64,000 nt of DNA from Escherichia coli (GCF_003991155.1 NZ_CP031297.1), one strand, 5' to 3'. Shown: positions 1,162-33,339, counted from the stretch's first letter. Translations and numbers: made by a program. The notes: generated by a model from the letters alone, not told the origin.

Positions 1162-1629
1162 ATGCCAGAAGAAAGCGCACAAGGTACGCCCACAAGGAAA
1201 GACCGGAAACGGAATGCCTCCGCATATGGGGGAGCTGCACGGATAGAGCGAACGTGACCCCAGATGCTTCGTGGGCTGAGGCTCGATATATGGGAACGTT
1301 GCACGGTAGTTGCAAGCCGAGTCTCAGTATCGTGCAAGCGTAAGCCACGACGAAGGATAAGTGCCATGCTGCTCCAGTGGTTCCCGTAGAGTGGTTCCCG
1401 TAAGGTATTGATAGTTAAAGGGTGAGGATGTGGGGGACCTGCACGTTATGAGATTTGATATGTGGGTACGTTGCACGAAAGCAGGTTCTGAACCTCTCGA
1501 TATATGGGAACTCTGCACGATTGACGAAGCAGAACAAAGATTGACAGATCAGGACAAACCTAAAAAGGCAGTCAAAATGACTCCAATAGTCCATAAAGTG
1601 ATCGTGCTCACATAAAAAGAGGCCAAAAG

Positions 1630-1638
1630 TTATCCACA
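1630..1638 (+). promoter_or_regulatory. DnaA box TTATCCACA
   Basis: Exact match to consensus DnaA box inside iteron region. Confidence 0.6.
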
Positions 1639-1888
1639 TTTCCTGTGCATAAACGGGGTTTTGGTATGTGGGAGCGCTGCACGATCACATGTGGGTACGC
1701 TGCACGGAGCAAAAAACGACCAAAATTGATATATGGGAACGTTGCACGTTAAGAAGAGAATATATGGGCTGACTGCACGTATAACCTTAGACATGTGGGA
1801 ACACTGCACGAACACCAGTTCTGATATGTGGGAACGCTGCACGAAAGCTCTGTTTTGTAAGGATTTTGTGGAAAAAAAAGGGGTTCCG

Positions 1889-1907
1889 TGTGGATAACAG
1901 TGGATAA
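1889..1907 (-). promoter_or_regulatory. two adjacent DnaA-box-like sites (TGTGGATAA, GTGGATAA)
   Basis: Reverse-complement matches to TTATCCACA, 11 bp apart, within iteron region. Confidence 0.55.
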
Positions 1908-2040
1908 GATCCAAGGGTATGTGGGGGCGTTGCACGGCAACCTATGGGTTCGCTGCACGGCAACCTATGGGTTCGTTGCACGGAATAAATATGAAAATGC
2001 CAGCAATATCAATGCGTTGAATGACAACTCAGAGCGCCTA

Positions 2041-2150
2041 ACCTGTTTTTAACCGCTTTTAATCCTTTATACAAAGATCTAAAGATCTTTATATTTATCC
2101 TTTTGATCGCTGAGCAAAAAATAATCAACACTGTTTTTTAGAGAAAAGTC
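2041..2150. other. AT-rich segment flanking iterons (candidate DNA-unwinding element)
   Basis: Visibly AT-rich with AAAGATCTAAAGATCTTT palindrome containing two GATC sites. Confidence 0.45.
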
Positions 2151-2593
2151 TCGTATGCAAGGCCGAACAGGACGAGTATCACTAACAAGATAAGCATCGA
2201 CAGCACAAAGTAACCAGACTCGTACACCACAGCTTTGATCACAGAAACGACGCTGATCGATCTTCCAGAGATCCTCCCGATGATCCAGTGAAACGCAACG
2301 AACGAACCAAGCCCACAGATCAGCACCACCGCTACGGAGACAAGTGCATGTTCCCTCAGGACAGACTCACTAAGGAAACCATACTGCATCCCCATCAATA
2401 CAAGCCTGCCAATGCCAAACCCCAGACCCAATGCAACAGCTCCACGAACCAGCACAACCTTCAACGACTGGAGCCATGTCAGTTCAAGATCCATCCCCTT
2501 ACGGGAAGACCGACGCACCAGCACCATAGATATGCCCAGCCCCAAAAACACCAAAAAAACAAAATCCAACATTACCACCTCTGCACAAATCAA
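2138..2593 (-). CDS. polytopic inner-membrane protein, unknown function
   Basis: 151-aa ORF with ~4 hydrophobic segments; 4-bp overlap with upstream PAPS-reductase-like gene (operon). Confidence 0.5.
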   Translation of the reverse strand: MICAEVVMLDFVFLVFLGLGISMVLVRRSSRKGMDLELTWLQSLKVVLVRGAVALGLGFGIGRLVLMGMQYGFLSESVLREHALVSVAVVLICGLGSFVAFHWIIGRISGRSISVVSVIKAVVYESGYFVLSMLILLVILVLFGLAYETFL

Positions 2594-3742: not shown

Positions 3743-3772
3743 TTTACAGTATTATAAAATGATGCTGTGAAA
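3743..3772. promoter_or_regulatory. 28-bp palindrome family copy (TTTACAGTATTATAAAATGATGCTGTGAAA)
   Basis: Imperfect inverted repeat in divergent intergenic region; family recurs ~9x. Confidence 0.5.
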
Positions 3773-14256: not shown

Positions 14257-14418
14257 GGTTTCTCCTTACTTAATATAGGTGCAATCCTATATAGATTCAA
14301 ACCTATAATCAAGAAAAATCGGCGGCTATGGGGGACGAAATGCCGGTAAGTAGTCATGTGACTAAAATAGGGGGTAGAATAGGCCTCAATATAGTCATGT
14401 GACTAAAAGGTGTACTGA

Positions 14419-14967
14419 ATGAACAACCTGCCCCTACTGCTCGACGCAAGAGAAGCCATTGACTACTACCACCAGCATCCAGACATGACTGATGCAGAAA
14501 AGGCCTATGTGGTCGCGTTCCTAAGCGGAGAGGGGCGCTCAAACAGTCAGATCAGAGAGGAACTGGGGATTGAGAAGGTATACACGGTTACACACCTGAA
14601 ACGCGCCGGTACGCTGTCGGAGGAAGAGCTCACACTCTGGCTCAGAAATCCACGCAAGATCACCCTGGGACATGTGAGAGCCGTGGCTAAGTTACCTATC
14701 AGCAAGAGAGAAAAGCTCCTGAGGGATCTCCTGCATACCAGGACACCGGTTCATACATATGAGGCGATAGCGAAGGGCAAAGAAGTGGATAGGGATGCTG
14801 ACATTAAGCGTCTGGAAACCCTGATGAGCGATGCGACGGGTAGGCCCATCAAAATTCGCTATAACCCCGCGAAGCGCTCCGGGGAGCTGACGCTGGGATT
14901 CTTCACGCTCGATGACCTGGATGACGTGTGCAAGGCTCTGGGGTTTGATCCAAGCGAGCAGATGTAA
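14419..14967 (+). CDS. hypothetical protein, possible HTH
   Basis: 182 aa; ITLGHVRAVAKLP segment reminiscent of ParB-type HTH (weak). Confidence 0.4.
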   Translation: MNNLPLLLDAREAIDYYHQHPDMTDAEKAYVVAFLSGEGRSNSQIREELGIEKVYTVTHLKRAGTLSEEELTLWLRNPRKITLGHVRAVAKLPISKREKLLRDLLHTRTPVHTYEAIAKGKEVDRDADIKRLETLMSDATGRPIKIRYNPAKRSGELTLGFFTLDDLDDVCKALGFDPSEQM

Positions 14968-14975
14968 ACCAGAAA

Positions 14976-14993
14976 ACTTTCACATGTGAAAGT
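14976..14993. promoter_or_regulatory. parS-like 18-bp perfect palindrome ACTTTCACATGTGAAAGT
   Basis: Exact; 9 bp after stop of ORF 14419..14967. Confidence 0.6.
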
Positions 14994-18226: not shown

Positions 18227-18241
18227 TGCCCAAAATGGGCG
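18227..18241. promoter_or_regulatory. TGCCCAAAATGGGCG motif (third cis-element family)
   Basis: GCCC-N5-GGGC inverted repeat. Confidence 0.4.
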
Positions 18242-18311: not shown

Positions 18312-18329
18312 ACTTTCACATGTGAAAGT
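18312..18329. promoter_or_regulatory. parS-like 18-bp perfect palindrome ACTTTCACATGTGAAAGT
   Basis: Exact; 2 bp upstream of ORF 18332. Confidence 0.6.
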
Positions 18330-21315: not shown

Positions 21316-21510
21316 GTGAAAAAGGTAAACATCAAGATCAAGGGCGGCAAGATTGCTGCCGATTTCACGGGGTTTCAGGGTAAGACCTGTGAAGCGCTGG
21401 AGCAGCGTATTCGCCCGGAAGAGCTCGAAGTCGAAGAAAAAGAGCTGAAACCCGAGTACCACTTCAATGCTGGTCAAACCCAGCACGAAACGGAACAGAA
21501 CGAATGGTGA
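21316..21510 (+). CDS. small conserved protein, DUF2997-like (GTG start)
   Basis: 64 aa; MKKVNIKIKGGKIAADFTGFQGKTC; RBS GAGGTG. Confidence 0.45.
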   Translation: MKKVNIKIKGGKIAADFTGFQGKTCEALEQRIRPEELEVEEKELKPEYHFNAGQTQHETEQNEW

Positions 21511-22688
21511 TGAGAAGGACAGGGCGCGTCCCCCTTCTTTTGCTGGTTGGTCTCATGGTCGCAGCTCCTGCGGCCTTTGCCAGTGACTTTGTGACTGGCG
21601 TAATGGTGGGGCAAATGCTCTCAGATGACTCAGGCAGCAAGAAGGTAGAGGACACTGGCCCGGAGAGCAAAACGGTCATTGATTACCATGACGGTCAGCC
21701 AGTTGTGACCAAAGTGGAGGCCTTCAAAAGCAATAAATGGCGCAAACTGGATGGCCCTCAGGGCGGCTATTTTGTTTGCCCAGGTGAATACCGTAGCTAT
21801 TCGGGAAGGCTGCGTTGTCGCGTCCATGATGACGGGCTCAATGGCTTTATGGGCGGTATGACTGATGCTCAGGAGCTACCGCTCCAAGAAGCTCTGACCA
21901 AGTTGGAAGGTAAACCCATCTCCCTGCAAACCATTGAAGTCCACGGGAACAACCTGGCAGTCAAATACCAGTTAGCACCACCAGCACAAACGCACGTCAA
22001 AACTCAGGACCTGGGGGTGGTTAAGCAAGATGGTGAAATGCAGAAGGTTGCCAGCCAACCACCAGCGCTATCCATAGAGACTGCACCAAAGAGTGAACCT
22101 CCCAAGCAGATTGGTGCTGCACAAGACACCGACCGCAATACCAGTGCGTTTCAAAGTCCGTTCGAGGAGGTAAGTGACTCCATGATCGGTCTAATGGATA
22201 GCTCTTTCGTCAAAGTCATAGCGGGGTTGATGCTGGTGTTTGGGGTTGCTAGTGGAATTATGAGGCAGAGCCCATCAGGAATTGTGATGGGGATAATGCC
22301 TGCAATTATGATCATGACCGCGCCAACGGTTATTCGTACCATGTTCGATACAGGCGCGGCCAGTACCAAGCCAGTGGAAGATAGCGGAAGCTCATTTCCT
22401 TTCTTCTTGGTGGCAATAGTGCCGGTGCTGATTTTCTTTGCCTATAGAGCTTTTATGAACAACCGGAGCGACTCCGAAATTGATGAGTTGTTAAGAGAAG
22501 CCCGACGTGCTGAAAGGGCTGAACGACCAAGCAATGAGCCTCCCTCAGTGGATGAACTCCGTGAGCGCCAGCAACAAAACCCAGAAAGAGAACCGGTGGT
22601 TGTCAGCTCATCAGCTCCGGCACCAAAGGTGCAAAAGGAAGAGCCAATCGAAGTACAGCCAGGCAAGCGCAAAATTATTTTGGATTAG
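21504..22688 (+). CDS. membrane protein with periplasmic N-domain and cytoplasmic tail ending PIEVQPGKRKIILD
   Basis: 394 aa; signal peptide, ~200-aa periplasmic region, hydrophobic segments, charged tail. Confidence 0.55.
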   Translation: MVMRRTGRVPLLLLVGLMVAAPAAFASDFVTGVMVGQMLSDDSGSKKVEDTGPESKTVIDYHDGQPVVTKVEAFKSNKWRKLDGPQGGYFVCPGEYRSYSGRLRCRVHDDGLNGFMGGMTDAQELPLQEALTKLEGKPISLQTIEVHGNNLAVKYQLAPPAQTHVKTQDLGVVKQDGEMQKVASQPPALSIETAPKSEPPKQIGAAQDTDRNTSAFQSPFEEVSDSMIGLMDSSFVKVIAGLMLVFGVASGIMRQSPSGIVMGIMPAIMIMTAPTVIRTMFDTGAASTKPVEDSGSSFPFFLVAIVPVLIFFAYRAFMNNRSDSEIDELLREARRAERAERPSNEPPSVDELRERQQQNPEREPVVVSSSAPAPKVQKEEPIEVQPGKRKIILD

Positions 22689-23047: not shown

Positions 23048-23472
23048 TGACACGGGCGGCTATGGCCGCGCTGTTATCCGCGTTGGTAATAGGCCTTGTG
23101 TCTGATTTGTCCGCACAAGAGCTGGTGGTAAGCCAGGTGGCTATAGACAAGTCCACTGAGGTGGAGAAAGAAGCTACCTTCCACAACCGCAAGTGGGTGT
23201 TAAGGACGGGGCAGGTTAGTGGATTCTTCATCTGCCAAGGAGATAACAAAGACATTTACTACCGGCATGACAGGGTGGGCGCTCACTGCCAGAAGACATC
23301 GACTGGGTGGCGCAATGTACTGGGTCTCAGGGACGATGTTCCGGAAGTTGAGCTGAGCGTGTACCTGGGGACCGTTGAAGGTGTCCCCGTGAAAGTCCTT
23401 CATCAGGAAGTGGATGGTTACGATCTGAAAGTGCAGTACAAGGTTGCACGTAAAGGGTCAGCAAATGAGTGA
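23044..23472 (+). CDS. secreted hypothetical protein
   Basis: 142 aa; signal peptide MMTRAAMAALLSALVIGLVSDLSAQ. Confidence 0.45.
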   Translation: MMTRAAMAALLSALVIGLVSDLSAQELVVSQVAIDKSTEVEKEATFHNRKWVLRTGQVSGFFICQGDNKDIYYRHDRVGAHCQKTSTGWRNVLGLRDDVPEVELSVYLGTVEGVPVKVLHQEVDGYDLKVQYKVARKGSANE

Positions 23473-24028
23473 GAGTGTGCGTCGGTCAACGCCGATGGTA
23501 AAGATTAAAATCCTGCCGAGTTTCGTAGGGGTTCCCTTCCCGTCGGTGCTACTTATCGTTGCGGGGCTCCTTAATGGCCCTTTGTGGGGCTTTGCCGCAT
23601 TCGTCTTTCATATCGTCATCAAGCGGTACATCTACAGAGAATACCGGAGGTTGCCATATCCGATGCCAACCGGCTCAAGGCCTATGGATGAGTTGAGCGA
23701 GCTCCTTGTAAAGGGGATACCGGAGGAATTTTTCCGGCGGCTTGACGCAGCTTGCAGCTCTGATGCGTCAGTACAAATAACCTGCCCAAAGAAATACCGG
23801 CTGCTCAAAATGTCGTTGAATCGCTATGCCAACCGCGCTGGTTGTTACCCGCAGTTCCGGGAGGGGGATGAAATAGCGATTGAGGTAACAGAGCAGAGAC
23901 CAAGAAAAGCAGGAGCAGGGAAGGGCTTTCCAAGTATTCAAGTTCTGAAAGCGTCAGAGGGTGTTCTGAGTGAACCGGAGCAGCCTATCGAAATTCAGAA
24001 AGATAAGCGCAAGATTATCTTGGATTGA
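23465..24028 (+). CDS. membrane protein with C-terminal tail PIEIQKDKRKIILD
   Basis: ~187 aa from ATG 23465; N-terminal TM helices; tail paralogous to 21504..22688. Confidence 0.5.
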   Translation: MSESVRRSTPMVKIKILPSFVGVPFPSVLLIVAGLLNGPLWGFAAFVFHIVIKRYIYREYRRLPYPMPTGSRPMDELSELLVKGIPEEFFRRLDAACSSDASVQITCPKKYRLLKMSLNRYANRAGCYPQFREGDEIAIEVTEQRPRKAGAGKGFPSIQVLKASEGVLSEPEQPIEIQKDKRKIILD

Positions 24029-24039
24029 GGTGGGTTGGA

Positions 24040-24609
24040 ATGCGGTCATTTTTATACAGAATATTGCTTCTTTGCTTCGTCATTATCGTCCAGATAGGGC
24101 TAATCGCCATTGATGCGAGCCCGTTGGTTGTTGCTATGTTCCTCTCGCTAACAGCTTTAGTCGCTGGGGTCTGGATGGCGTACCTTCATTCCCGATTTTT
24201 GATGGCGGTGACTCCAGTAGTTATCTCTGTGCTAATGGCGACCCTCGCCATGAAAATGTTTGAGCCGAGACTCTTTGTTTCTGCCAGCGAAAAAGGCTGG
24301 TTCCCTTTGTCATTGTTCGTCTCGATACCGTTTTACTTCTACTTGAGTTACTTGCTTGAGATAGAGGAGAAGAGACGTACATTCCGGGCCAATGTGATTG
24401 GGTTTTTGCGTGGAGTTTCGGAAGAGATCCGTCGTTCAACCAGAGAGCATAGAGATCAAGGTGAGATAAGACACGGTGGAACAGAGCTGGGGAGTATTGA
24501 CGAACTACAAAGGGGCGAGGCCAAAGAGCCAGAAGTCATCAGCTCTACATCGGACCAGAAAGAACAAGGCACTCCCAAGCGAGACAAGAGAAAAATCATT
24601 CTGGACTGA
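24040..24609 (+). CDS. membrane protein with C-terminal tail KRDKRKIILD
   Basis: ~189 aa from ATG 24040 (RBS GAGGTG); several TM helices; same terminal motif. Confidence 0.5.
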   Translation: MRSFLYRILLLCFVIIVQIGLIAIDASPLVVAMFLSLTALVAGVWMAYLHSRFLMAVTPVVISVLMATLAMKMFEPRLFVSASEKGWFPLSLFVSIPFYFYLSYLLEIEEKRRTFRANVIGFLRGVSEEIRRSTREHRDQGEIRHGGTELGSIDELQRGEAKEPEVISSTSDQKEQGTPKRDKRKIILD

Positions 24610-24611
24610 AC

Positions 24612-25157
24612 ATGGAACAAATCAGAAAAGGCTTAACCCTCGAATACGCAAAAGAGAAGCGTGAGAAGCTCTTGGCGGAGCTCAAATCAGATGAACACTA
24701 CAGCCAGACTGAAACAGTAGCCTATGGGCACCACGACCCGCTCAGCGTTCCTGTGGCAGCCTGCGATAGTTGTCATGGCCGGGCGCAAATGCAGAAGGTT
24801 ATAGGTCCTCCTGTGCGCTGGAATATGGTCTGCCTGGGTTGTGGGAAGGCGATCCAACAAATCCAGAAACGACCGTGGCAAGCAGCAATGGCGTGGAACC
24901 AAATTAACTTGGGAACACAGGACTACAGACAACTGCCCCTCTTTGGACTTGGGAGTCTGTCTCCTGAATCAGCAAGACAGAGAATGGTGGGAATACGCAG
25001 GAACCTGGAGCTGAGAAAGAGCCTCGCCGGTATCGAGAGGACGATAGCCCACAAGGAAGGTCAACGCCCACCAGGGAAAGAGTACCAGCAACGACTGGAA
25101 GCATATCTGCAATGGGCCATGCTGGCGCTGAGGTTGCTCAAAGTCAAAGCAAGTTAG
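24612..25157 (+). CDS. hypothetical protein with Cys4 zinc-ribbon-like motif
   Basis: 181 aa; CDSCHG ... CLGCG. Confidence 0.45.
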   Translation: MEQIRKGLTLEYAKEKREKLLAELKSDEHYSQTETVAYGHHDPLSVPVAACDSCHGRAQMQKVIGPPVRWNMVCLGCGKAIQQIQKRPWQAAMAWNQINLGTQDYRQLPLFGLGSLSPESARQRMVGIRRNLELRKSLAGIERTIAHKEGQRPPGKEYQQRLEAYLQWAMLALRLLKVKAS

Positions 25158-25176
25158 TGGTGAGAAGGAAGAGAGA

Positions 25177-25206
25177 ACCCGGTACTGTAAAGCGCCGGGT
25201 TTTTTA
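25177..25206 (+). terminator. rho-independent terminator
   Basis: ACCCGG...CCGGGT stem followed by T6. Confidence 0.5.
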
Positions 25207-25216
25207 TGCCGCCCTG

Positions 25217-25244
25217 TTTACAGTATCAAAAAGTGATGCTATAA
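25217..25244. promoter_or_regulatory. 28-bp palindrome family copy (TTTACAGTATCAAAAAGTGATGCTATAAA)
   Basis: Upstream of ParB-like gene 25274. Confidence 0.5.
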
Positions 25245-25273
25245 AGTGAGCAAGTCACAAGGAGAACCAACGA

Positions 25274-26212
25274 ATGGCTGTTATCAACTCACTCCGCGCT
25301 CTCAAAGGCGTAACCGCCCCCGAAGAACTGAAAAAAGGGGATGGATTCACTATCTCTCCTCAGCTTCTGCTGGAGGAAGAAGGGTTTAACACCCGTGGCG
25401 CTTTCTGCGAGGACTACTACGAGCGCCCGGACATCAAAGCTGGTATTCGAGTGCTGGCCGATGCTTACAAGCGTGGCGACTATGTTCCGCCGATCATCGT
25501 CAAAGTTATCGACGGAAAGGTGTATGTCCGTGAAGGTCATCGCCGTCGCCGCGCCATCCTGCTTGCTATAGAGGAAGGTGCCGACATCCAGTTCGTGCAG
25601 GTCGTAGAGCACAAGGGCGATGAAGCCGAACAGAGCCTTCTGATCGCCACCAGCAACGATGGGCTCCCTCTTTCTCCACTTGAGCGAGCCGTGATCTACG
25701 CTCGGCTTGCAAACTGGGGGTGGAGCGACCAGATGATTGCCCAACGTGTTGGCCGCTCGGCTGAGCACGTTCGTATCGCCCGTGCCCTTTTGGAGATGCC
25801 TCTGGAACTGAAACGGATGATTCAGGAAGGCTCTGTGGCTGCCACCTACGCTCAGGAGCTCTACAACGAGCACGGCACCAACGCTGTTGAGATCCTGAAA
25901 AAGGCGCAGGAAGAACAGGCCAGTGGCAATGACGGCAAGAAGGCCCCGAAAAAACTGACCAAAAAGTCTGTCGAGAAAGGTCCCCGCCTGGGCAAAAAGG
26001 TGGTTGAAGCCATGCACCGAGGCGTGAGCTCTATTACCAGTCGTCTGGACAACATCAAGCCGAACGATGACGGTGAAACGTTCACCCTTACCCTGAGCCG
26101 GGAAGATGTTGATGCGTTTCAGGAGCTGAAAGCCAAGCTGGCGGAGCTGGAGCCCAAAACTGACGAGTCCAATGAAGACCAGCAAGAGCTGGATTTGGCG
26201 GGTAATCAGTAA
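25274..26212 (+). CDS. ParB/Srx-domain protein (second, orphan ParB-like; KorB-like candidate)
   Basis: 312 aa; ParB N-domain motif VREGHRRRRAIL, HTH region, Lys-rich C-terminus; no adjacent ParA. Confidence 0.7.
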   Translation: MAVINSLRALKGVTAPEELKKGDGFTISPQLLLEEEGFNTRGAFCEDYYERPDIKAGIRVLADAYKRGDYVPPIIVKVIDGKVYVREGHRRRRAILLAIEEGADIQFVQVVEHKGDEAEQSLLIATSNDGLPLSPLERAVIYARLANWGWSDQMIAQRVGRSAEHVRIARALLEMPLELKRMIQEGSVAATYAQELYNEHGTNAVEILKKAQEEQASGNDGKKAPKKLTKKSVEKGPRLGKKVVEAMHRGVSSITSRLDNIKPNDDGETFTLTLSREDVDAFQELKAKLAELEPKTDESNEDQQELDLAGNQ

Positions 26213-26368
26213 TGGGGCGCTGTACTGTTGAGGATGCCATCCAGTTGCTGGAAGGGGGAACCATTGTTGCGGTCGTACCGGCGTCATCCGGACCAGATAC
26301 GCTGGTGGTTTCCTCTATCAGGCTTGAATCCGGACTGACAGTACAGTTTTCCCCTCCAGCGGCAGCCA

Positions 26369-26647
26369 GTGTCAGTGTTCAGCTCGCGGAGCTCGATGAT
26401 GAACAGTGACAAGAAATCGTCTGAACTAGCCAGACTGAGGCGTCAGCATCAGCTAGTTTGCTCTGTCATCGCAGCCTTGCTCATCTGTGCAGGTATATAT
26501 GGGACCGTTGCACGTTTGGGCTTCATCCTGATGGCGCCATTGTTTGTTATCGCCTTAGGTGTGTTAGTCGATGCGTTCCTGCCAAGGGTAAGTTGGTTCT
26601 TCTGTGTGCGGGACGTGAGAGACATATTTGGGTGGAGAAAACGATAG
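26369..26647 (+). CDS. small membrane protein
   Basis: 92 aa, hydrophobic; contains an isolated iteron copy. Confidence 0.3.
   Translation: MSVFSSRSSMMNSDKKSSELARLRRQHQLVCSVIAALLICAGIYGTVARLGFILMAPLFVIALGVLVDAFLPRVSWFFCVRDVRDIFGWRKR
26495..26514. repeat. isolated iteron copy (ATATATGGGACCGTTGCACG)
   Basis: Near-consensus iteron ~24.5 kb from main array. Confidence 0.5.
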
Positions 26648-26889
26648 TGGCGAAGTTGAAGGTTTATGGCGGGATCACTTATGGGGCCGAGGGGCAGTTC
26701 AGAACTGTCGTTGCGGCCACAAGTAAGAGCAAGGCTGCTTCAATTCTGAATATCACGATTTACCAGATGAATAGCTGGTGGACGGAGACTTTTAACAAGT
26801 ACGAGGTCGAGGCGGCGATGTCTGAGCCGGGGGCTATTTTTTCAAAGCCTCTCGATGGCAGAGACCCATTTGTAAAGCAGGAAGGATAA
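26647..26889 (+). CDS. hypothetical protein (GTG start)
   Basis: ~80 aa; GTG overlaps previous stop. Confidence 0.3.
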   Translation: MAKLKVYGGITYGAEGQFRTVVAATSKSKAASILNITIYQMNSWWTETFNKYEVEAAMSEPGAIFSKPLDGRDPFVKQEG

Positions 26890-26891
26890 TT

Positions 26892-27254
26892 GTGAGAAGT
26901 GTTTTTGTATGGTTGAAGGCCGGGGCAATACTGGCTTTCCTATTCTTCGGTATTGCTGGTGCTGTCAACCGGGTCTATTGGGTTAACAGCCAAGGTTTGA
27001 GCCAGGGGTCGATGTCATCCACATTGGTTAAAGAAAAGTTTGGCCTAGACCTTGGTGCAATGTGCCGTTATGACAAACCCCAGCATGTCGAGTTCAAAGT
27101 CCTTCCTGATCAGACAATCCAGTTCCGCTGCTCATGGTTTGAAGGTGGCGGATTAACCTGGTGGCCTTTCTACACCGAGCATGATGTAAAGAGCGCCGAG
27201 GCGACCTCTGTGCTCAATGACATATTCCAGGGTACGGAGGGGCATGATGAGTAG
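26892..27254 (+). CDS. hypothetical membrane/secreted protein
   Basis: 120 aa with N-terminal hydrophobic segment. Confidence 0.4.
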   Translation: MRSVFVWLKAGAILAFLFFGIAGAVNRVYWVNSQGLSQGSMSSTLVKEKFGLDLGAMCRYDKPQHVEFKVLPDQTIQFRCSWFEGGGLTWWPFYTEHDVKSAEATSVLNDIFQGTEGHDE

Positions 27255-28491
27255 CCAGCTAGAACTCTTTCATGTCCAAGAGGCGTATGCCAAGGCCGAT
27301 AAGCCGTTATCGAATGAGGAGCTCTACGATTCGGTGGCAGAGCTCGCTGGAATCCCGAAAAGCGCTCTGAATGAACAAAGTGAAATTGGCAAGGCAAAGG
27401 TCAAGCGGAGCAAGCTGAAAAGACAGATACGCTGGTATCAGCAAACCCTCAAGTCGATGAACCTTCTCCAGAAGGTGGACGGCGAGCGGGGTGTCTGGGA
27501 GCTCTCAAGCAAAACCAAGAAGGGCCTGCATGAAGCGCTAGGTGGCGTTCGACTGGTCGCTTATTCAACAAATCTTGGGCTGGCGGTGTGGTCAAACAAC
27601 AAGAGCTTTTTCTCTGACCTCGATGAGCCGGTGCATCTGTGTGTGACATCTCCGCCGTTCCCGCTCCGTATACAGCGTGGCTATGGAAACGTTGATGAAG
27701 CCAAATGGGTGGATTTCATTACTCAGGCACTCGAACCGATAGTCAAGAACCTGGTGCCAGGAGGAAGCGTTGTCCTGAATGTCAGCAATGACATATTCGA
27801 GGCCAAGAGCCCCTCCAGATCTCTCTACGTTGAGCGAATGGTGCTGGCGCTCCATGATCGGCTTGGGCTCTCTCTCATGGATAGATGGCCGTGGATCAAC
27901 CTGTCAAAACCACCAAGTCCGACCCACTGGGCTTGTGTGAACCGTTACCAGTTGTGTGCCGGGTGGGAGCCTGTTTATTGGTTCACCAACGACCCTGACA
28001 GGGTGCGTTCTGACAACAGAAGGGTCCTGATCCCTCATACAGAGAAACATCAGAAGCTGATGGCCCAAGGCGGTGATAACAGAGTGGTCAGTTATGGTGA
28101 CGGGGCATATCGACTGAGAGGGAACGCATTCTCTAACGTCACGGAAGGACGGATACCGAAAAACGTTATCCAGCGCGGCCACCGTTGTGCGGATACTCTG
28201 GAGCTTCGGAGAATCGCTAGAGAACTGGGGTTGCCACCGCACCCGGCAATGTTCCCAACAGACATACCTGAAATGGCTATCCGCTTTCTGACGGAAGAGG
28301 GCGACCTTGTTGTTGATCCGTTCAGTGGGTCGAATAAGAGCGGGTTGGCCGCAGAAAGGAATAACCGGCGCTGGATCGCCTGTGACATCATTCTTGAGTA
28401 CATTCGCACCCAGGCGGAAATGTTCACCGGCTTTGATGGATTTTGGATGAACCCGGCCATAGCAGCAGTGGGCGGGGGAGCGTTGAATTAA
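27244..28491 (+). CDS. DNA methyltransferase, beta-class N6-adenine or N4-cytosine (orphan)
   Basis: Motif IV TSPPF precedes motif I VVDPFSGSNKSG; RBS GGAGG before ATG 27244; no adjacent endonuclease. Confidence 0.8.
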   Translation: MMSSQLELFHVQEAYAKADKPLSNEELYDSVAELAGIPKSALNEQSEIGKAKVKRSKLKRQIRWYQQTLKSMNLLQKVDGERGVWELSSKTKKGLHEALGGVRLVAYSTNLGLAVWSNNKSFFSDLDEPVHLCVTSPPFPLRIQRGYGNVDEAKWVDFITQALEPIVKNLVPGGSVVLNVSNDIFEAKSPSRSLYVERMVLALHDRLGLSLMDRWPWINLSKPPSPTHWACVNRYQLCAGWEPVYWFTNDPDRVRSDNRRVLIPHTEKHQKLMAQGGDNRVVSYGDGAYRLRGNAFSNVTEGRIPKNVIQRGHRCADTLELRRIARELGLPPHPAMFPTDIPEMAIRFLTEEGDLVVDPFSGSNKSGLAAERNNRRWIACDIILEYIRTQAEMFTGFDGFWMNPAIAAVGGGALN

Positions 28492-28498
28492 GAGAACA

Positions 28499-28954
28499 AT
28501 GCCCATGAATTTAAGTATTATCGCAAGAGTCTTGCGCCAATTGGCAATTATTTTTGTCCTCTCCGTGCTTCTTGTGGCCGGATATATCTACTATGCCGGT
28601 AAACAACATCAGCAGGCAGCAATCAACTTTTGGGGTGAGCAATACCAGCCTGATGCCATCTCGACGCAAATTGATTGGGGGTTTATCGGTAATTGGGTTA
28701 TTCCTCGCGGGGGGCCAATTATTTCTCCGGGCATTGCTGGAGTGTGTCCCAATACACCACTTCCCGTTGTGCCTCTTAAAACTGGTCCTGATGGCCGGGG
28801 TTATGTTCTCTGTGGCATTGGAAGTGAGGCTGTCGCTACCAGCTTTGATGTCAATGACATCCAGGATGAAGAGATACGAAACACATTAAAAACGATGTTT
28901 GAGGAAGAATTTGAAAAAACTGTTAAGGGGGATAAATGGACACTCAAGAACTGA
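28499..28954 (+). CDS. hypothetical membrane protein
   Basis: 151 aa, N-terminal TM helix. Confidence 0.4.
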   Translation: MPMNLSIIARVLRQLAIIFVLSVLLVAGYIYYAGKQHQQAAINFWGEQYQPDAISTQIDWGFIGNWVIPRGGPIISPGIAGVCPNTPLPVVPLKTGPDGRGYVLCGIGSEAVATSFDVNDIQDEEIRNTLKTMFEEEFEKTVKGDKWTLKN

Positions 28955-29247
28955 ACCACATGATAGCTGAGGCCTACAGCCGGGATTTGCAAAAGCCTGA
29001 GCTGGTATCGTTCAAAGAGGTGAGTCGCTGGGGGCGTAAGTACGGTTTCCCCGTCGTATGCACTCTGGCCGATGAAAGTGAAGAAAAGCAGATTCACTGG
29101 GCTGCCAGTTTGCTCATTCAAGTAGCCGGTACTTGGCCGCGAGAAGATATGCCGGAATTGCTCACACCGGAACGGGGCTCCGCGCTGTTCAACGATGCGA
29201 TGCAGTTATTGGCGAATGGGCTTGGAGCAGCAAATCAATTGCGCTGA
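28936..29247 (+). CDS. hypothetical protein
   Basis: 103-aa ORF. Confidence 0.4.
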   Translation: MDTQELNHMIAEAYSRDLQKPELVSFKEVSRWGRKYGFPVVCTLADESEEKQIHWAASLLIQVAGTWPREDMPELLTPERGSALFNDAMQLLANGLGAANQLR

Positions 29248-29267
29248 CAGCACAAACCTTGTCAATA

Positions 29268-29292
29268 AGCGGCCTTCATGGCCGTTTTTTTG
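29268..29292 (+). terminator. rho-independent terminator
   Basis: GCGGCC-TTCAT-GGCCG hairpin followed by T8. Confidence 0.6.
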
Positions 29293-29326
29293 TTTAAAGT
29301 TTGTTTTAACAGAACCATAATTAGAT

Positions 29327-29354
29327 ATTGCAGTATCATTTTATGATCGCTACA
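29327..29354. promoter_or_regulatory. 28-bp palindrome family copy (ATTGCAGTATCATTTTATGATCGCTACAA)
   Basis: Upstream of parA, abutting parS-like site. Confidence 0.5.
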
Positions 29355-29355
29355 A

Positions 29356-29373
29356 TCTTTCACATGTGAAAGT
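29356..29373. promoter_or_regulatory. parS-like palindrome TCTTTCACATGTGAAAGT
   Basis: 17/18 match; 42 bp upstream of parA start. Confidence 0.6.
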
Positions 29374-29414
29374 TTGGGGGTGGTCTTGATCACCTGCGAG
29401 AAACCAAAATAGAG

Positions 29415-30206
29415 GTGGGTATGGCAAAAGTAATCAGCTTCGCCAACCAGAAAGGCGGAGTGGGTAAGAGTACCCTCTGTATCCAGCAGGCCTTTTATCT
29501 GGCGTTACAGAAGAAAAAGAAAGTGCTGGTCTTGGATATGGATGGTCAGGGGAACACGTCCTCTCGACTGGCCCCCAGACGAGAGCTTGAGGATGGTGAC
29601 TACGAGCCCATCCTCACTGGAACCAAAACCGCAGAGCTGTTCGCTTACGAGCTGGACGGCATTGAGGTCATGCACTGCCCTTGCGGTGCAGACCTCATTC
29701 ATACGCCGAAGAATGACCCGGATCTGTTTGAGATGGAGGCTGTGCCTCTTGACCAAGCCATGAATCCGGCTCGCCATTTGGCTGAGCTGTTTGAGAACTA
29801 CGACTACGTGCTGATTGATTGTCCGCCTAGCCTCGGCAGAAAGCTGGTGGCAGCGTTGGTGATGTCTACCCATGTGGCATGTCCGGTAAAGCTCTCTGGC
29901 TTCGCTGTGGACGGCGTAGAAGGTCTCCTGAACACGATTATTGGTGTGCGCGAGGCATACAACCAAAATTTGGAGATCCTGGGCATCGTGATCAACGACA
30001 TGGACCGCTCTGTCAATCACGACAAAGCCCTCAAGTCGCTGGAGAACACAGTTCCGGATCTGCTGTTTGAGAACAAAATTATGCACCGGCCTCCGCTCGA
30101 TACGGCGACGACTGATGGCATCCCTGTCTGGGAGCTTCGCTATGGACATGTCGCGGCCAAAGAGGTTGAGGCGGTGTTGGAAGAACTATTAGAGAAGGTG
30201 GGCTAA
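29415..30206 (+). CDS. parA: ParA partition ATPase (Soj/MinD superfamily)
   Basis: 263 aa; deviant Walker A FANQKGGVGKSTL. Confidence 0.9.
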   Translation: MGMAKVISFANQKGGVGKSTLCIQQAFYLALQKKKKVLVLDMDGQGNTSSRLAPRRELEDGDYEPILTGTKTAELFAYELDGIEVMHCPCGADLIHTPKNDPDLFEMEAVPLDQAMNPARHLAELFENYDYVLIDCPPSLGRKLVAALVMSTHVACPVKLSGFAVDGVEGLLNTIIGVREAYNQNLEILGIVINDMDRSVNHDKALKSLENTVPDLLFENKIMHRPPLDTATTDGIPVWELRYGHVAAKEVEAVLEELLEKVG

Positions 30207-30209
30207 GCG

Positions 30210-31391
30210 ATGGCATTGAACAATTTAAAAGGCCTGTCCGAACTTGCTAAAGCCGCCAAAGGCAAGAAAGGCAAAGAGGTTCTTACCGTACCTGTTGACG
30301 ACGTTGTATCCAAGGTCCAGGTTCGTAAGCGCTTCCGTAACATTGAAGAGCTGGCGGCAACCTTGCTGACCGAAGGGCAGCAATCTCCGATCATCGTGTT
30401 CCCGAAGAATGAAGAAGGCAAGTTCGTCATCCAAAAAGGGGAGCGGCGTTGGAGAGCGTGTAAACACGCTGGTATCGAGACCATTGACCTGGTGGTGAAT
30501 GATAAGGTCCAGAACAATTTGGACGAGACTGCTGGTGAGCTGATCGAAAACATCCAGCGGGATGACTTGACTCCGGTAGAGATTGCCGAGGCGTTAAACC
30601 TGTTTATTGAAGAAGGTTGGAAGCAAAAGGATATTGCTGATCGGCTCGGTAAGAATATCACTTTCGTATCTACGCATCTGTCGTTGCTCAAGCTACCTGA
30701 CTGTGTGCGTGAGTTATACGATAATGAAGTATGTTCTGATACAGAGACCTTGAATAACCTTCGTCTCTTGTTCGATCTGAATGAAGAAAGATGTCGCGCC
30801 GTCTGCGCGGTGGCTATGTCTGACGGGATTACTCGTAAACAAAGCCGTGAGCTGCTGAATGATGCCAAACGTATCAAAGACGAAATGGAAAAAGGCCCAC
30901 TGACTGGCTCCCACCAGAATGATGAGCTTGGCGCTGGCAACACCGACGAGCAATCCCTCAACTCGGGTGGGGATGGTACGTCGGAACAAACCGGGAATGA
31001 CGACCTGAACCTTGCCCAGGAGGAACTGGAAGGGGGTAAAAATTCCAATGGTCAGGACGATGATGACGAAGACCCTTTGCGTGATGAAGAGGGTGAGCAC
31101 AAAGATCCTGTCAAGCAGCCAGATAACAGCGGCAAGGACAAAGATGAAGAAGGCGGTGATGCTCTTCCTCCTCTGCCGAAGGACAAGGAATGGAAGAACG
31201 TCCGGGCTGACAGTTTGATTTTTGCTGTCAACGTTAACCTGGATGGCGAGACCAAACGTGGAGTCATCATGACCGACCGTGTTGCTCTGGTTCCGTCTAC
31301 TGTCTGGGTTAAAACGCTCGATGGCGAAGGCAAGGAAAAGCATGTTCATGTGCCTGTGTCAGACATTGAACTCCTGAGTGTCGAAGGCTAA
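30210..31391 (+). CDS. parB: ParB partition protein with acidic C-terminal extension
   Basis: 393 aa; ParB motif KGERRWRA, HTH; immediately downstream of parA. Confidence 0.85.
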   Translation: MALNNLKGLSELAKAAKGKKGKEVLTVPVDDVVSKVQVRKRFRNIEELAATLLTEGQQSPIIVFPKNEEGKFVIQKGERRWRACKHAGIETIDLVVNDKVQNNLDETAGELIENIQRDDLTPVEIAEALNLFIEEGWKQKDIADRLGKNITFVSTHLSLLKLPDCVRELYDNEVCSDTETLNNLRLLFDLNEERCRAVCAVAMSDGITRKQSRELLNDAKRIKDEMEKGPLTGSHQNDELGAGNTDEQSLNSGGDGTSEQTGNDDLNLAQEELEGGKNSNGQDDDDEDPLRDEEGEHKDPVKQPDNSGKDKDEEGGDALPPLPKDKEWKNVRADSLIFAVNVNLDGETKRGVIMTDRVALVPSTVWVKTLDGEGKEKHVHVPVSDIELLSVEG

Positions 31392-31433
31392 TAAAGGAGG
31401 CCCAGCCAAAGAGGTTGGGCCTGTCAAGAACAG

Positions 31434-31712
31434 GTGAATATGAAGATCTCACAGGACATGAAAAGAAAATTTGCTTTGGTGAATGCCCTGTCTAAAACGG
31501 AGAAGCCAAGTCTCCAAGACCTTCACAAGGCAACAAATATTCCTGAATCAACGATCAAGAGACAGTTGTCTGCCCTGCGTGATGAGTTCGGAATGAATAT
31601 CTTGTTCGTCAGGGAGTCTACCGGCGAACGAGGTGCCACCGGCTACTACATGCTGACAGACTGGGGGATCTTAGACAGGTCTTCGTTCTTGAACCGGTAC
31701 GGAAAACTGTAA
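31434..31712 (+). CDS. small protein, possible winged-helix regulator
   Basis: 92 aa; PSLQDLHKATNIPESTIKRQLSALRD. Confidence 0.4.
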   Translation: MNMKISQDMKRKFALVNALSKTEKPSLQDLHKATNIPESTIKRQLSALRDEFGMNILFVRESTGERGATGYYMLTDWGILDRSSFLNRYGKL

Positions 31713-31740
31713 GGTGCCATAGAGCAGCGCATTGAATGCA

Positions 31741-31767
31741 AAACCCGCCAATCGGCGGGTTTTTTTA
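31741..31767. terminator. bidirectional rho-independent terminator
   Basis: CCCGCC-AATC-GGCGGG hairpin with A-run upstream and T7 downstream, between convergent genes. Confidence 0.65.
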
Positions 31768-32433
31768 TGCTGCCACGGTAGCGGCGGTTGCTGGAGGTTT
31801 TTCGGCGTAGTAGGCGATGTTCTTGGTTCGTCTGCTAAGGGTGTCTATGCCGACGATACTCAGCGTTTTGGGAGTGGTATTGCGGGACTCGAAATAATGG
31901 AATAGCTGGATCATGCAGCACTTCACCATCAACGGATCGATGTCTTCCAGGTAGATTGAGGCTTCTCTCAATGCTTCGGGACCGTGGTTCTCGATCAGGT
32001 TTTCCATCCAGTGAATGGCGTTGATGCCAGAACCACAGCAGGGCTCATAAAAGTCTGCCGAAGACTGTGAGCCAACAATGAGTGACATCAAGCGGCCAAT
32101 CTCTGGAGGAGTGGGGAAGTAATTGGTGCCCTTCTTGTGGAAGCCAGACATGCTTAGGACGTAACCCAAAACATCGCTGGTGGGGTCGCGCTTAATGGCG
32201 GCAGACAGGACGTGAGAGAGCTCGAAGGCGACCGGCTGAAGTTCTTCCGGGATCTCCTCCTTGGCTGGGTATAGGCCAGTCTGCAAGTATGCCCACTGGT
32301 CAATAAAGGCCTCAACAAACCGAGATGTGCCCATTCTGTATCGGGACTGCTCGATGAGAGATAAAGCCTTGGATGTAAGTTGCTGTGTTTCTGGTGACAT
32401 AAGCGCTCCAGTTTGTTCTGACGAAACATTCAA
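31765..32433 (-). CDS. N6-methyltransferase-like protein lacking catalytic motif IV (possibly truncated)
   Basis: 222 aa; motif X NYFPTPPEI and motif I FYEPCCGSG present, no (N/D/S)PP(Y/F/W) motif. Confidence 0.4.
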   Translation of the reverse strand: MNVSSEQTGALMSPETQQLTSKALSLIEQSRYRMGTSRFVEAFIDQWAYLQTGLYPAKEEIPEELQPVAFELSHVLSAAIKRDPTSDVLGYVLSMSGFHKKGTNYFPTPPEIGRLMSLIVGSQSSADFYEPCCGSGINAIHWMENLIENHGPEALREASIYLEDIDPLMVKCCMIQLFHYFESRNTTPKTLSIVGIDTLSRRTKNIAYYAEKPPATAATVAA

Positions 32434-32704
32434 GAGGTAGAAACGAAGAACCCCGCCGAAGCGAGGTTCTTTGCTTTCCTGCCTGATCGCCTTAATGCCG
32501 AAGCAAAGACGTCTTGATAAAGTCGGGGCAACCGGACATTTCCCGGTCGATGAAGTCCTGACGTTTCGCCAGCGGCCATTTCATGAACGCCGCGAGCGGG
32601 ATGCGCTTATTCGTGTTAGTATTGCCTTGCAGCATAACAAAGCTCCTTAATTGCTTGATTGTGTTGTAAGGGCTGCAACGAAGGTCGAAGAGCGATGCGG
32701 CCCT

Positions 32705-32952: not shown

Positions 32953-33339
32953 GTGATATGTATGCCAAAGCAAGCAAATCATCTCCGTTTGAAGAAACCT
33001 TGCGCCAACTGTCCATTCCGGAAGGAGGGCGCTATCGAGCTGGCCCCTGGGCGATTAGAAGGCATCATCAACGACATCGTTGAAAACGACATGACGACGT
33101 TTCATTGCCACAAGACCGTGCACTCAAAGTCAGGTGGTGAATGGGATGAAGAGGGTAACTATGCACCTTCGGGACAAGAGTCGATGTGTGCCGGTGCTGC
33201 GGCTTACTTGATGAAAATAGGCAGGCCGACAGTGGCTATGCGAATTGCCTTTGCGTTTGGTGATGCAAAGGTGTCCGACTGGGACGAAGCTCAAGAGCTG
33301 GTTGTCGAGCCTTTGGTACAAGGGGACCGAAATGAGTAA
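32953..33339 (+). CDS. Cys-rich hypothetical protein
   Basis: 128 aa; CANCPF ... CH. Confidence 0.4.
   Translation: MICMPKQANHLRLKKPCANCPFRKEGAIELAPGRLEGIINDIVENDMTTFHCHKTVHSKSGGEWDEEGNYAPSGQESMCAGAAAYLMKIGRPTVAMRIAFAFGDAKVSDWDEAQELVVEPLVQGDRNE

Follow-up and report, generated by a model that had tools for sequence, protein, structure and literature searches.

The DNA analysed here is a stretch of 64,000 nucleotides (hereafter the window; one strand, 5' to 3') from Escherichia coli (GCF_003991155.1, NZ_CP031297.1), and our subject is the two genes for ParB-family proteins that it carries at 25274..26212 and 30210..31391. The window has the same sequence as bases 1-64000 of pR148 (NC_019380.1), an Aeromonas hydrophila plasmid of the IncC, MOBH and MPF_F types; coordinates are window positions throughout. 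More than 1000 A/C-type plasmids have matches to bases 24500-32500; together with the identity to pR148, this places the interval with the ParB genes in the conserved backbone of IncC, with repA on one side and the transfer genes on the other. An earlier note, made from the sequence alone, had described the two proteins as ParB homologues of which only the second is coupled to parA. Both open reading frames (ORFs; 312 and 393 aa) are real and homologous to one another (26% identity over 181 aa, E 4e-9), and only 30210..31391 follows a ParA gene. In pR148, RefSeq names 25274..26212 'chromosome partitioning protein ParB' and 30210..31391 'KorB domain-containing protein'; here, the orphan is called ParB2 and the parA-linked protein ParB1. 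The features of the two loci are as follows.

25217..25245, + strand: imperfect palindrome of 29 bp forming part of the promoter of the orphan operon, TTTACAGTATCA-AAAAG-TGATGCTATAAA
25274..26212, + strand: orphan ParB-like gene (ParB2); its 312-aa product combines a ParB/Srx N-domain and a ParB helix-turn-helix (HTH) with a Lys-rich linker and, C-terminally, a domain resembling ParB_C
29329..29357, + strand: PparA promoter with the palindromic core TTGCAGTATCATTTTATGATCGCTACAAT, positioned as in PMC10954446
29353..29376, no strand assigned: parS, overlapping the -10 of PparA and bound in electrophoretic mobility shift assays (EMSA) in PMC10954446
29415..30206, + strand: parA, a Walker-type ParA ATPase (RefSeq start 29421; AAA_31, 1e-33; CbiA, 3e-18)
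30210..31391, + strand: parB (ParB1), 393 aa, a KorB-like centromere-binding protein with canonical cytidine triphosphate (CTP) motifs
31440..31712, + strand: gene 053, coding for a small winged-helix protein (HTH_43, 7.8e-10), third gene of the par operon
31740..31763: terminator after 053

ParB1 contains a Pfam KorB domain (1.7e-38) in addition to ParB_N and HTH_ParB, and its closest relative among solved structures is KorB of RK2 (8qa8, 8.8e-21). The GERRWRA motif attributed to it is present (KGERRWRACKHAG); its 'long acidic tail' is indeed acidic, but is a linker followed by a structured, beta-rich C-terminal domain. In the IncC group, parS is a 22-bp inverted repeat with 14 sites in IncC plasmids, ParB binds it in EMSA, ParA and ParB together stabilise a replicon bearing parS, and repression of PparA by ParB has been inferred (Muranyi et al. 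2024, PMC10954446). Consistent with this, the parS core TTTCACATGTGAAA is found in nine exact copies in the window, against 0.34 expected, and in 14 in pR148, mostly in promoter regions. The parA-parB-053 operon (29415..31712) thus has the components of a ParABS system, namely a ParA of the Walker type, parS, and a ParB that possesses both the N-domain and the HTH, with binding and stabilisation documented in PMC10954446; ParB1 likewise has what is expected of a KorB-like repressor, the KorB domain and multiple promoter-near operators, the repression of PparA being taken from the same study. ParB1 therefore appears to perform both partition and KorB-like multi-site repression. As it appears to combine the two jobs, like KorB in RK2, the split suggested in the earlier note, in which one of the two proteins might be a KorB-like regulator and the other the partition protein, does not agree with the evidence; ParB2, moreover, is without a KorB domain. 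The three CTP-binding boxes of ParB1 are intact, from which we infer CTP-dependent clamping. Full repression of PparA requires a backbone factor encoded outside parAB053 (Muranyi et al., PMC10954446).

Two observations concern the surroundings of parS. In an A/C-like marine element known from a metagenome-assembled genome (MAG; L007), a CRISPR-like array (clustered regularly interspaced short palindromic repeats) at about 1380..2450 of that element, with some 18 repeats GTGTTTCCCGCGTAGCGGGGGTGAACCG and spacers of about 32 nt, lies about 150 bp from the first of two parS cores (2593, 2681), upstream of parAB053. We take its repeat to be type I-E-like. In the window, the 12-mer CCCAAAATGGGC occurs at 18229, 32850 and 50257, each time about 65-85 bp from a parS core (18314, 32773 and 50192, respectively); these repeats probably reflect the AcaCD boxes beside parS mentioned by Muranyi et al.

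The absence of a ParB fold on profile search had been named as the result that would speak against a ParB assignment of ParB2, and the fold was found. The central HTH matches Pfam HTH_ParB above the curated cut-off (2e-8), ParB2 matches TIGR00180 below its cut-off (3e-9), and residues 57-201 align to Spo0J (1vz0; phmmer, 1e-7). Pfam ParB_N has no match in ParB2; the AlphaFold2 (AF2) model, however, with a mean predicted local distance difference test (pLDDT) score of 90.3, finds Spo0J, RK2 KorB (8qa9, 8qa8), Myxococcus xanthus ParB and Noc as its best Foldseek matches (E about 1e-7), and as these structures include the N-domain, a ParB/Srx (CTPase-fold) N-domain can be assigned to ParB2. The GHRRRRA motif is present as well (VREGHRRRRAILLA). 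Pfam ParB_C also has no match; the last 60 residues nevertheless align column by column with the ParB_C domain of canonical ParB, and are predicted to form a helix-strand-strand-helix unit (pLDDT 81-88; AF2, monomer). Because the C-terminus aligns with ParB_C and is predicted to be structured, the Lys-rich stretch is best described as a linker (about residues 218-240) of what appears to be a complete three-domain ParB. What had been read as a Lys-rich tail is thus Lys-rich but no tail, a structured domain lying beyond it, and the true tail is acidic. ParB2 is a candidate three-domain ParB homodimer.

Inspection of the nucleotide pocket, also suggested in the earlier note, separates the two proteins. 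The set of residues associated with the CTPase switch (QxR in Box I, GERRxRA in Box II and ENxQR in Box III) is canonical in ParB1, whereas ParB2 departs from it in each box. Box I reads NxR; the position of the Box II Glu is occupied by His, and by His, Tyr or Ala in the aligned relatives from plasmids and integrative and conjugative elements (ICEs), although gp81 of phage 9NA has the Glu; and in Box III the canonical motif, with its Glu-Asn, is replaced by a conserved Thr-Ser-Asn-Asp-Gly (TSNDG). No substitution of N39 or R41 in Box I, or of G88, R91 or R93 in Box II, occurs among 56 family members with 36-72% identity to the query, and since the arginines of both boxes are among these positions, the phosphate-binding arginines are under selection. 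In the ParBs studied so far, Mg coordination and hydrolysis depend on acidic residues that ParB2 does not have, according to literature summaries. With the usual catalytic and Mg-binding acidic residues missing, hydrolysis by ParB2, if it binds a nucleoside triphosphate at all, would probably be slow or nil. The LG[KR]GL ParA-binding motif, as defined by Kaljevic et al., is absent from ParB2, whose N-terminus reads MAVINSLRALKGV (family consensus NSLKxLN).

The palindrome before the orphan gene, described earlier as 28 bp long and parS-like, is real, but it is a 29-bp imperfect element embedded in a promoter and is not parS-like. Its 12-nt arms are complementary at 10 of 12 positions, and its ends form a sigma-70-like promoter (TTTACA as -35 and TATAAA as -10, with a 17-bp spacing). 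No perfect 28-bp palindrome exists anywhere in the window, and there is no parS before the orphan: going upstream, the first core lies at 18314, and going downstream at 29358, with none within 4 kb of 25274. The terminator-like hairpin at 25175..25202 was also considered as the palindrome meant, and was rejected after a k-mer analysis, which the promoter palindrome fits better. The element belongs to a family of about 29 bp (TTTACAGYATCAT-AAA-ATGATRCTGTAAA) with members at 3743, 15016, 17830, 19279, 25217, 29329, 32716 and 32951 (the last on the - strand). Eight backbone promoters thus carry it, including PparA (29329), where parS follows directly. Allowing up to three mismatches, seven matches are found against none expected, and with a looser pattern 15 against 1.2, mostly on both strands; all copies in pR148 lie within its first 33 kb. 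Apart from parS and these promoter palindromes, the window has no repeated palindromes.

The orphan's palindrome recurs nearly base for base in IncA plasmids, in a Marinobacterium element (L017) and in the MAG L007, whose ParB2 proteins are 94-69% identical to that of IncC (69-70% for L007 and L017). In L007 and L017, parS is found 45-55 bp upstream of the orphan's palindrome. The conservation of the element, the nearby parS in L007 and L017 and the copy in PparA together indicate that the orphan is wired into the ParB1/parS network and shares a promoter-operator with parA. Neither the sequence of the palindrome nor the motif was found in the literature searched.

On these grounds we lean, tentatively and at a little short of an even chance, towards ParB2 being an auxiliary regulator that binds DNA sequence-specifically, has no part in partition and has the palindrome in its own promoter as its likely target. 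On the published evidence, ParB1 loads at the 22-bp parS sites in backbone promoter regions, partitions the plasmid with ParA and appears to repress its own promoter. ParB2, as a presumed dimeric DNA-binding protein without a partition role, would bind the palindromic operator in its own promoter and so regulate itself, and could also act on the seven sister promoters of the repA-to-par arm of the backbone, PparA among them. It may then contribute to the additional backbone factor without which PparA is not fully repressed, and would superimpose another level of control on the ParB1/parS circuit, comparable to the cooperation of KorA with KorB in RK2.

ParB2 heads an operon of its own, with terminators at both ends, made up as follows.

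25175..25202, + strand: terminator-like hairpin (AACCCGG, 12-nt loop, CCGGGTT, then T6) closing the upstream operon; read by eye, its loop exceeding the 8 nt of the automatic scan
26212..26409, + strand: 65-aa ORF whose ATG overlaps the orphan's TAA (TAATG), conserved in IncA
26647..29247, + strand: rest of the orphan operon, small ORFs annotated without function and a methyltransferase
27247..28491, + strand: orphan DNA methyltransferase of the N6/N4 type whose N-terminus carries an Mrr_N winged-helix domain, within the operon of the orphan ParB
29267..29287, + strand: intrinsic-terminator-like hairpin (8-bp stem, then a T run) closing the orphan operon ahead of PparA

The orthologous site in IncA keeps a hairpin before the orphan promoter; in the IncA operon, other small ORFs stand in place of the methyltransferase. 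The 65-aa ORF has no match in Pfam or PHROG, and is related neither to 053 nor to the ORFs found downstream of ParB2 homologues at other loci. In the operon 5' of the orphan, three predicted, mostly membrane-like proteins (21504..22688, 23444..24028 and 24025..24609) end in a common (G/D)KRKIILD, which may be a sorting or interaction tag. With regard to the wider plasmid, a position of oriT beside traI/mobH (about 42.6 kb) was considered and rejected: mobI is at about 165 kb, shortly ahead of repA, which locates oriT there too, and an argument placing ParB2 in the leading region was dropped once this was established.

A search of 5.8 billion proteins with ParB2 returned 112 clusters at 34-100% identity; beyond these, the similarity falls off abruptly, and canonical ParBs come next (E about 3e-4). 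The strongest family model is phrog_1033 (1.7e-54), and tblastn detected homologues in 311 phage records, including the lytic phages 9NA and fEV-1. These phage proteins are 40-51% identical to ParB2 over the full length, the C-terminal domain included: g41c of Yersinia phage fEV-1 (50% identity) is flanked by genes for a helicase and a dCTP deaminase, and gp81 of Salmonella phage 9NA adjoins a methyltransferase and an HNH gene. As far as sequence comparison goes, ParB2 is a member of a separate, ParA-less clade common to conjugative elements and lytic phages. Such company allows another explanation, in which ParB2 is an establishment or DNA-transaction factor that loads on incoming plasmid or host DNA and either reprogrammes the host or recruits or activates a modifying or replication enzyme. 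The phage genes stand among those for polymerase, helicase, primase and methyltransferase, the Mrr_N-N6/N4 methyltransferase of the IncC operon would be a candidate partner, and fusions of the ParB fold to N6_N4 methyltransferases are reported to be common in phages. Precedents exist in HerB (YfjB) of the F plasmid and in the phage ParB-like activators of 5mYOX dioxygenases, and a protein dispensable in the laboratory would fit a function in host range or establishment. Yet IncA and other relatives have ParB2 without the methyltransferase, the ParBs associated with 5mYOX have no HTH whereas ParB2 does, the extra dimerisation module of HerB is absent from ParB2, and PADLOC gave no defence-system match for 053 or any of the three ParB-like proteins of the window. 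We regard this role as possible but rather unlikely.

The neighbourhoods of the homologues bear on partition. No parA lies directly beside a ParB2 homologue at 11 other loci, nor is there one in the IncC operon. In three A/C-like marine elements (L007, L016 and L017), the ParB2 gene is 1.5-3 kb downstream of a parA-parB(KorB)-053 operon, and in IncA and IncC it is 3-4 kb upstream of the par operon. In two Comamonas elements (L002, 10001..11286; L015, 10001..11277), the stop of the ParB2-type gene coincides in part with the start codon of a genuine homologue of 053 (48% identity, 1e-28), and the surrounding 10 kb contain no parA; this coupling suggests that winged-helix proteins of the 053 type partner ParB-type proteins generally. 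The lack of an adjacent parA, here and at the 11 loci, the absence of LG[KR]GL and the existence of phage homologues all argue that ParB2 is not a partition protein. Its full ParB architecture with a predicted dimerisation domain, the alignment of the conserved N-terminal NSLxxL with the N-termini of ParB1 and canonical ParB, and its proximity to parAB053 in four A/C-like elements could still be accommodated by a second centromere-binding protein, one that would use the plasmid's single ParA or a host ParA, and a centromere of its own, for back-up partition. Against such a role are not only the missing canonical ParA-binding motif but also the frequency of homologues in lytic phages and other ParA-less contexts, the persistence of about 64% of A/C plasmids without ParB2 and the lack, in the window, of any repeated palindrome besides parS and the promoter palindromes that could serve as a centromere; we consider it improbable.

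Among PLSDB records, the ParB2 gene is present in 387, parB1 in 1080 and a small ParB-like gene (see below) in 985, so that about 64% of the A/C plasmids have no ParB2 gene. The majority of the records with parB1 are typed as conjugative, and the ParB2 gene is evidently dispensable for replication, inheritance and transfer. In pVC1374 (L011), a sul2 island abuts parA, backbone homology resumes at window position 28926 and the orphan gene is gone. From the gene numbering of pVCR94 in the papers of the Burrus laboratory (vcrx028, toxin; vcrx029, sul2; vcrx036, the ORF at 32962; vcrx042, dcm2), we infer the same kind of orphan-removing deletion in that plasmid. If a deletion of this kind takes in everything from about 15 kb onwards, which the pVCR94 numbering suggests, half of the eight palindromic promoters are lost with it. 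Its absence from most A/C plasmids, together with the loss of canonical catalytic residues, could make ParB2 a functionless relic of an old parB duplication that is on its way out. This is highly improbable, however: the ORF is intact in 384 of the 387 records, and in 352 its identity is 99% or more; the family extends over 112 clusters, reaching down to 34% identity, and its pocket residues do not vary; conservation extends to the promoter and to the partner ORF, which is translationally coupled; and the fold is predicted with high confidence.

The window has a third gene of this kind.

14419..14967, + strand: third ParB-like gene, 182 aa, with a ParB DNA-binding domain and ParB_C but no N-terminal nucleotide-binding domain

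Its product matches Pfam ParB_C (1.3e-8) and, weakly, HTH_ParB; the AF2 model (pLDDT 89.6) leads in Foldseek to the DNA-binding domains of ParB and Noc and to the ParB C-terminal domain 5noc. The gene has been listed as 'R55_24/parB-like regulator' (Muranyi et al., PMC10954446). A parS core at 14978 starts 11 bp past its stop, in L007 the gene sits between the par operon and ParB2, and its relatives form about 87 protein clusters, mostly marine. The protein may be a competitor for parS or a co-regulator. Directly upstream of it, with a divergent RelE/XRE toxin-antitoxin pair nearby, are two exact 17-bp direct repeats TAGTCATGTGACTAAAA (14351..14367 and 14392..14408), each with a small palindrome and without further copies in the window; they may serve as operator for the small ParB-like gene or for the RelE/XRE pair.

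Several points weigh against a regulatory role of ParB2 at the palindromes. The palindromic promoters are intact in plasmids without ParB2, such as pVC1374, and ParB2 is therefore not their sole or essential ligand. At the loci of distant homologues (Comamonas, Halomonas and metagenomes), no operator resembling the IncC palindrome was found. The small ParB-like protein, with its 985 records, and 053 are equal or better candidates for binding the palindromes, and the Pfam KorB domain of the known repressor was not found in ParB2. The replication and modification modules around the phage homologues suggest a role in DNA transactions over one in transcription control. Finally, the literature searches returned no binding, expression or phenotype data for ParB2.

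If accessory regulation by ParB2 is nonetheless correct, it can be extended, speculatively and with only a small chance of being right, to a circuit of three ParB proteins: ParB1 on parS, the ParB-like protein lacking the N-domain, and ParB2 as a hydrolysis-deficient clamp on the 29-bp palindromes with a partner of the 053 type, for which the gene pair in Comamonas is the model. ParB2 would then be the backbone factor acting on PparA and the target of the Sci protein from SGI1 (Salmonella genomic island 1), and its loss through insertion of a resistance island would retune par expression and the incompatibility between helper plasmid and SGI1.

Orphan proteins of the ParB fold on mobile elements are an already recognised class, and the IncC parABS system has been published. 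What we did not find described in the literature searched are the clade that the orphan shares with phages, its frequent loss and the common class of palindromic promoters. IncC plasmids rank among the main carriers of multidrug resistance, and SGI1 takes advantage of their parABS. The double role of ParB1, the accessory status of ParB2 and the class of eight palindromic promoters reduce the number of places in which to look for the par regulator that was reported as missing in 2024, and the palindromes and ParB-like proteins provide concrete sites and proteins to test; otherwise, ParB2 is a further example of the well-documented spread of orphan ParB folds on mobile elements.

Among known systems, ParB2 resembles the orphan ParB-CTPase-fold proteins (Kaljevic et al. 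2025) in being encoded away from parA, in having no ParA-binding motif, in its plasmid location and phage relatives and in apparently keeping the canonical layout of N-terminal domain, HTH and C-terminal domain. The phrog_1033 phage proteins (9NA gp81 and fEV-1 g41c) are its closest sequence relatives outside plasmids, though their context is one of replication and modification and that of ParB2 is a plasmid backbone; no characterisation of phrog_1033 and the A/C-like clade was found in the literature searched, and the phage homologues, being uncharacterised, lend ParB2 no function. HerB (YfjB), encoded in the leading region of the F plasmid, is comparable: it comes from a conjugative plasmid, is an orphan of ParB-like type that unites a CTP-binding fold with an HTH, and does not take part in partition. 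It differs in its size, about double that of ParB2, in a novel dimerisation module (D4) and in Box III, where the Mg-binding Glu is intact; ParB2, for its part, has a ParB_C-like C-terminal domain and is missing that Glu. VirB of the Shigella plasmid pINV and BisD of ICEclc show that ParB homologues lacking a ParA can load CTP-dependently at particular sites and control transcription on mobile elements, but they have no close sequence relationship to ParB2 and are activators or anti-silencers. With KorB of RK2, which works alongside KorA and IncC, the ParA of that plasmid, ParB2 has only the general ParB fold in common, having no KorB domain, no adjacent ParA and no intact Box II and III. It is ParB1 that corresponds to RK2 KorB, in its KorB domain, acidic linker and many sites in promoter regions (PMC10954446; PMC11790492), in its dual role in partition and repression, and in having a small HTH gene in the same operon.

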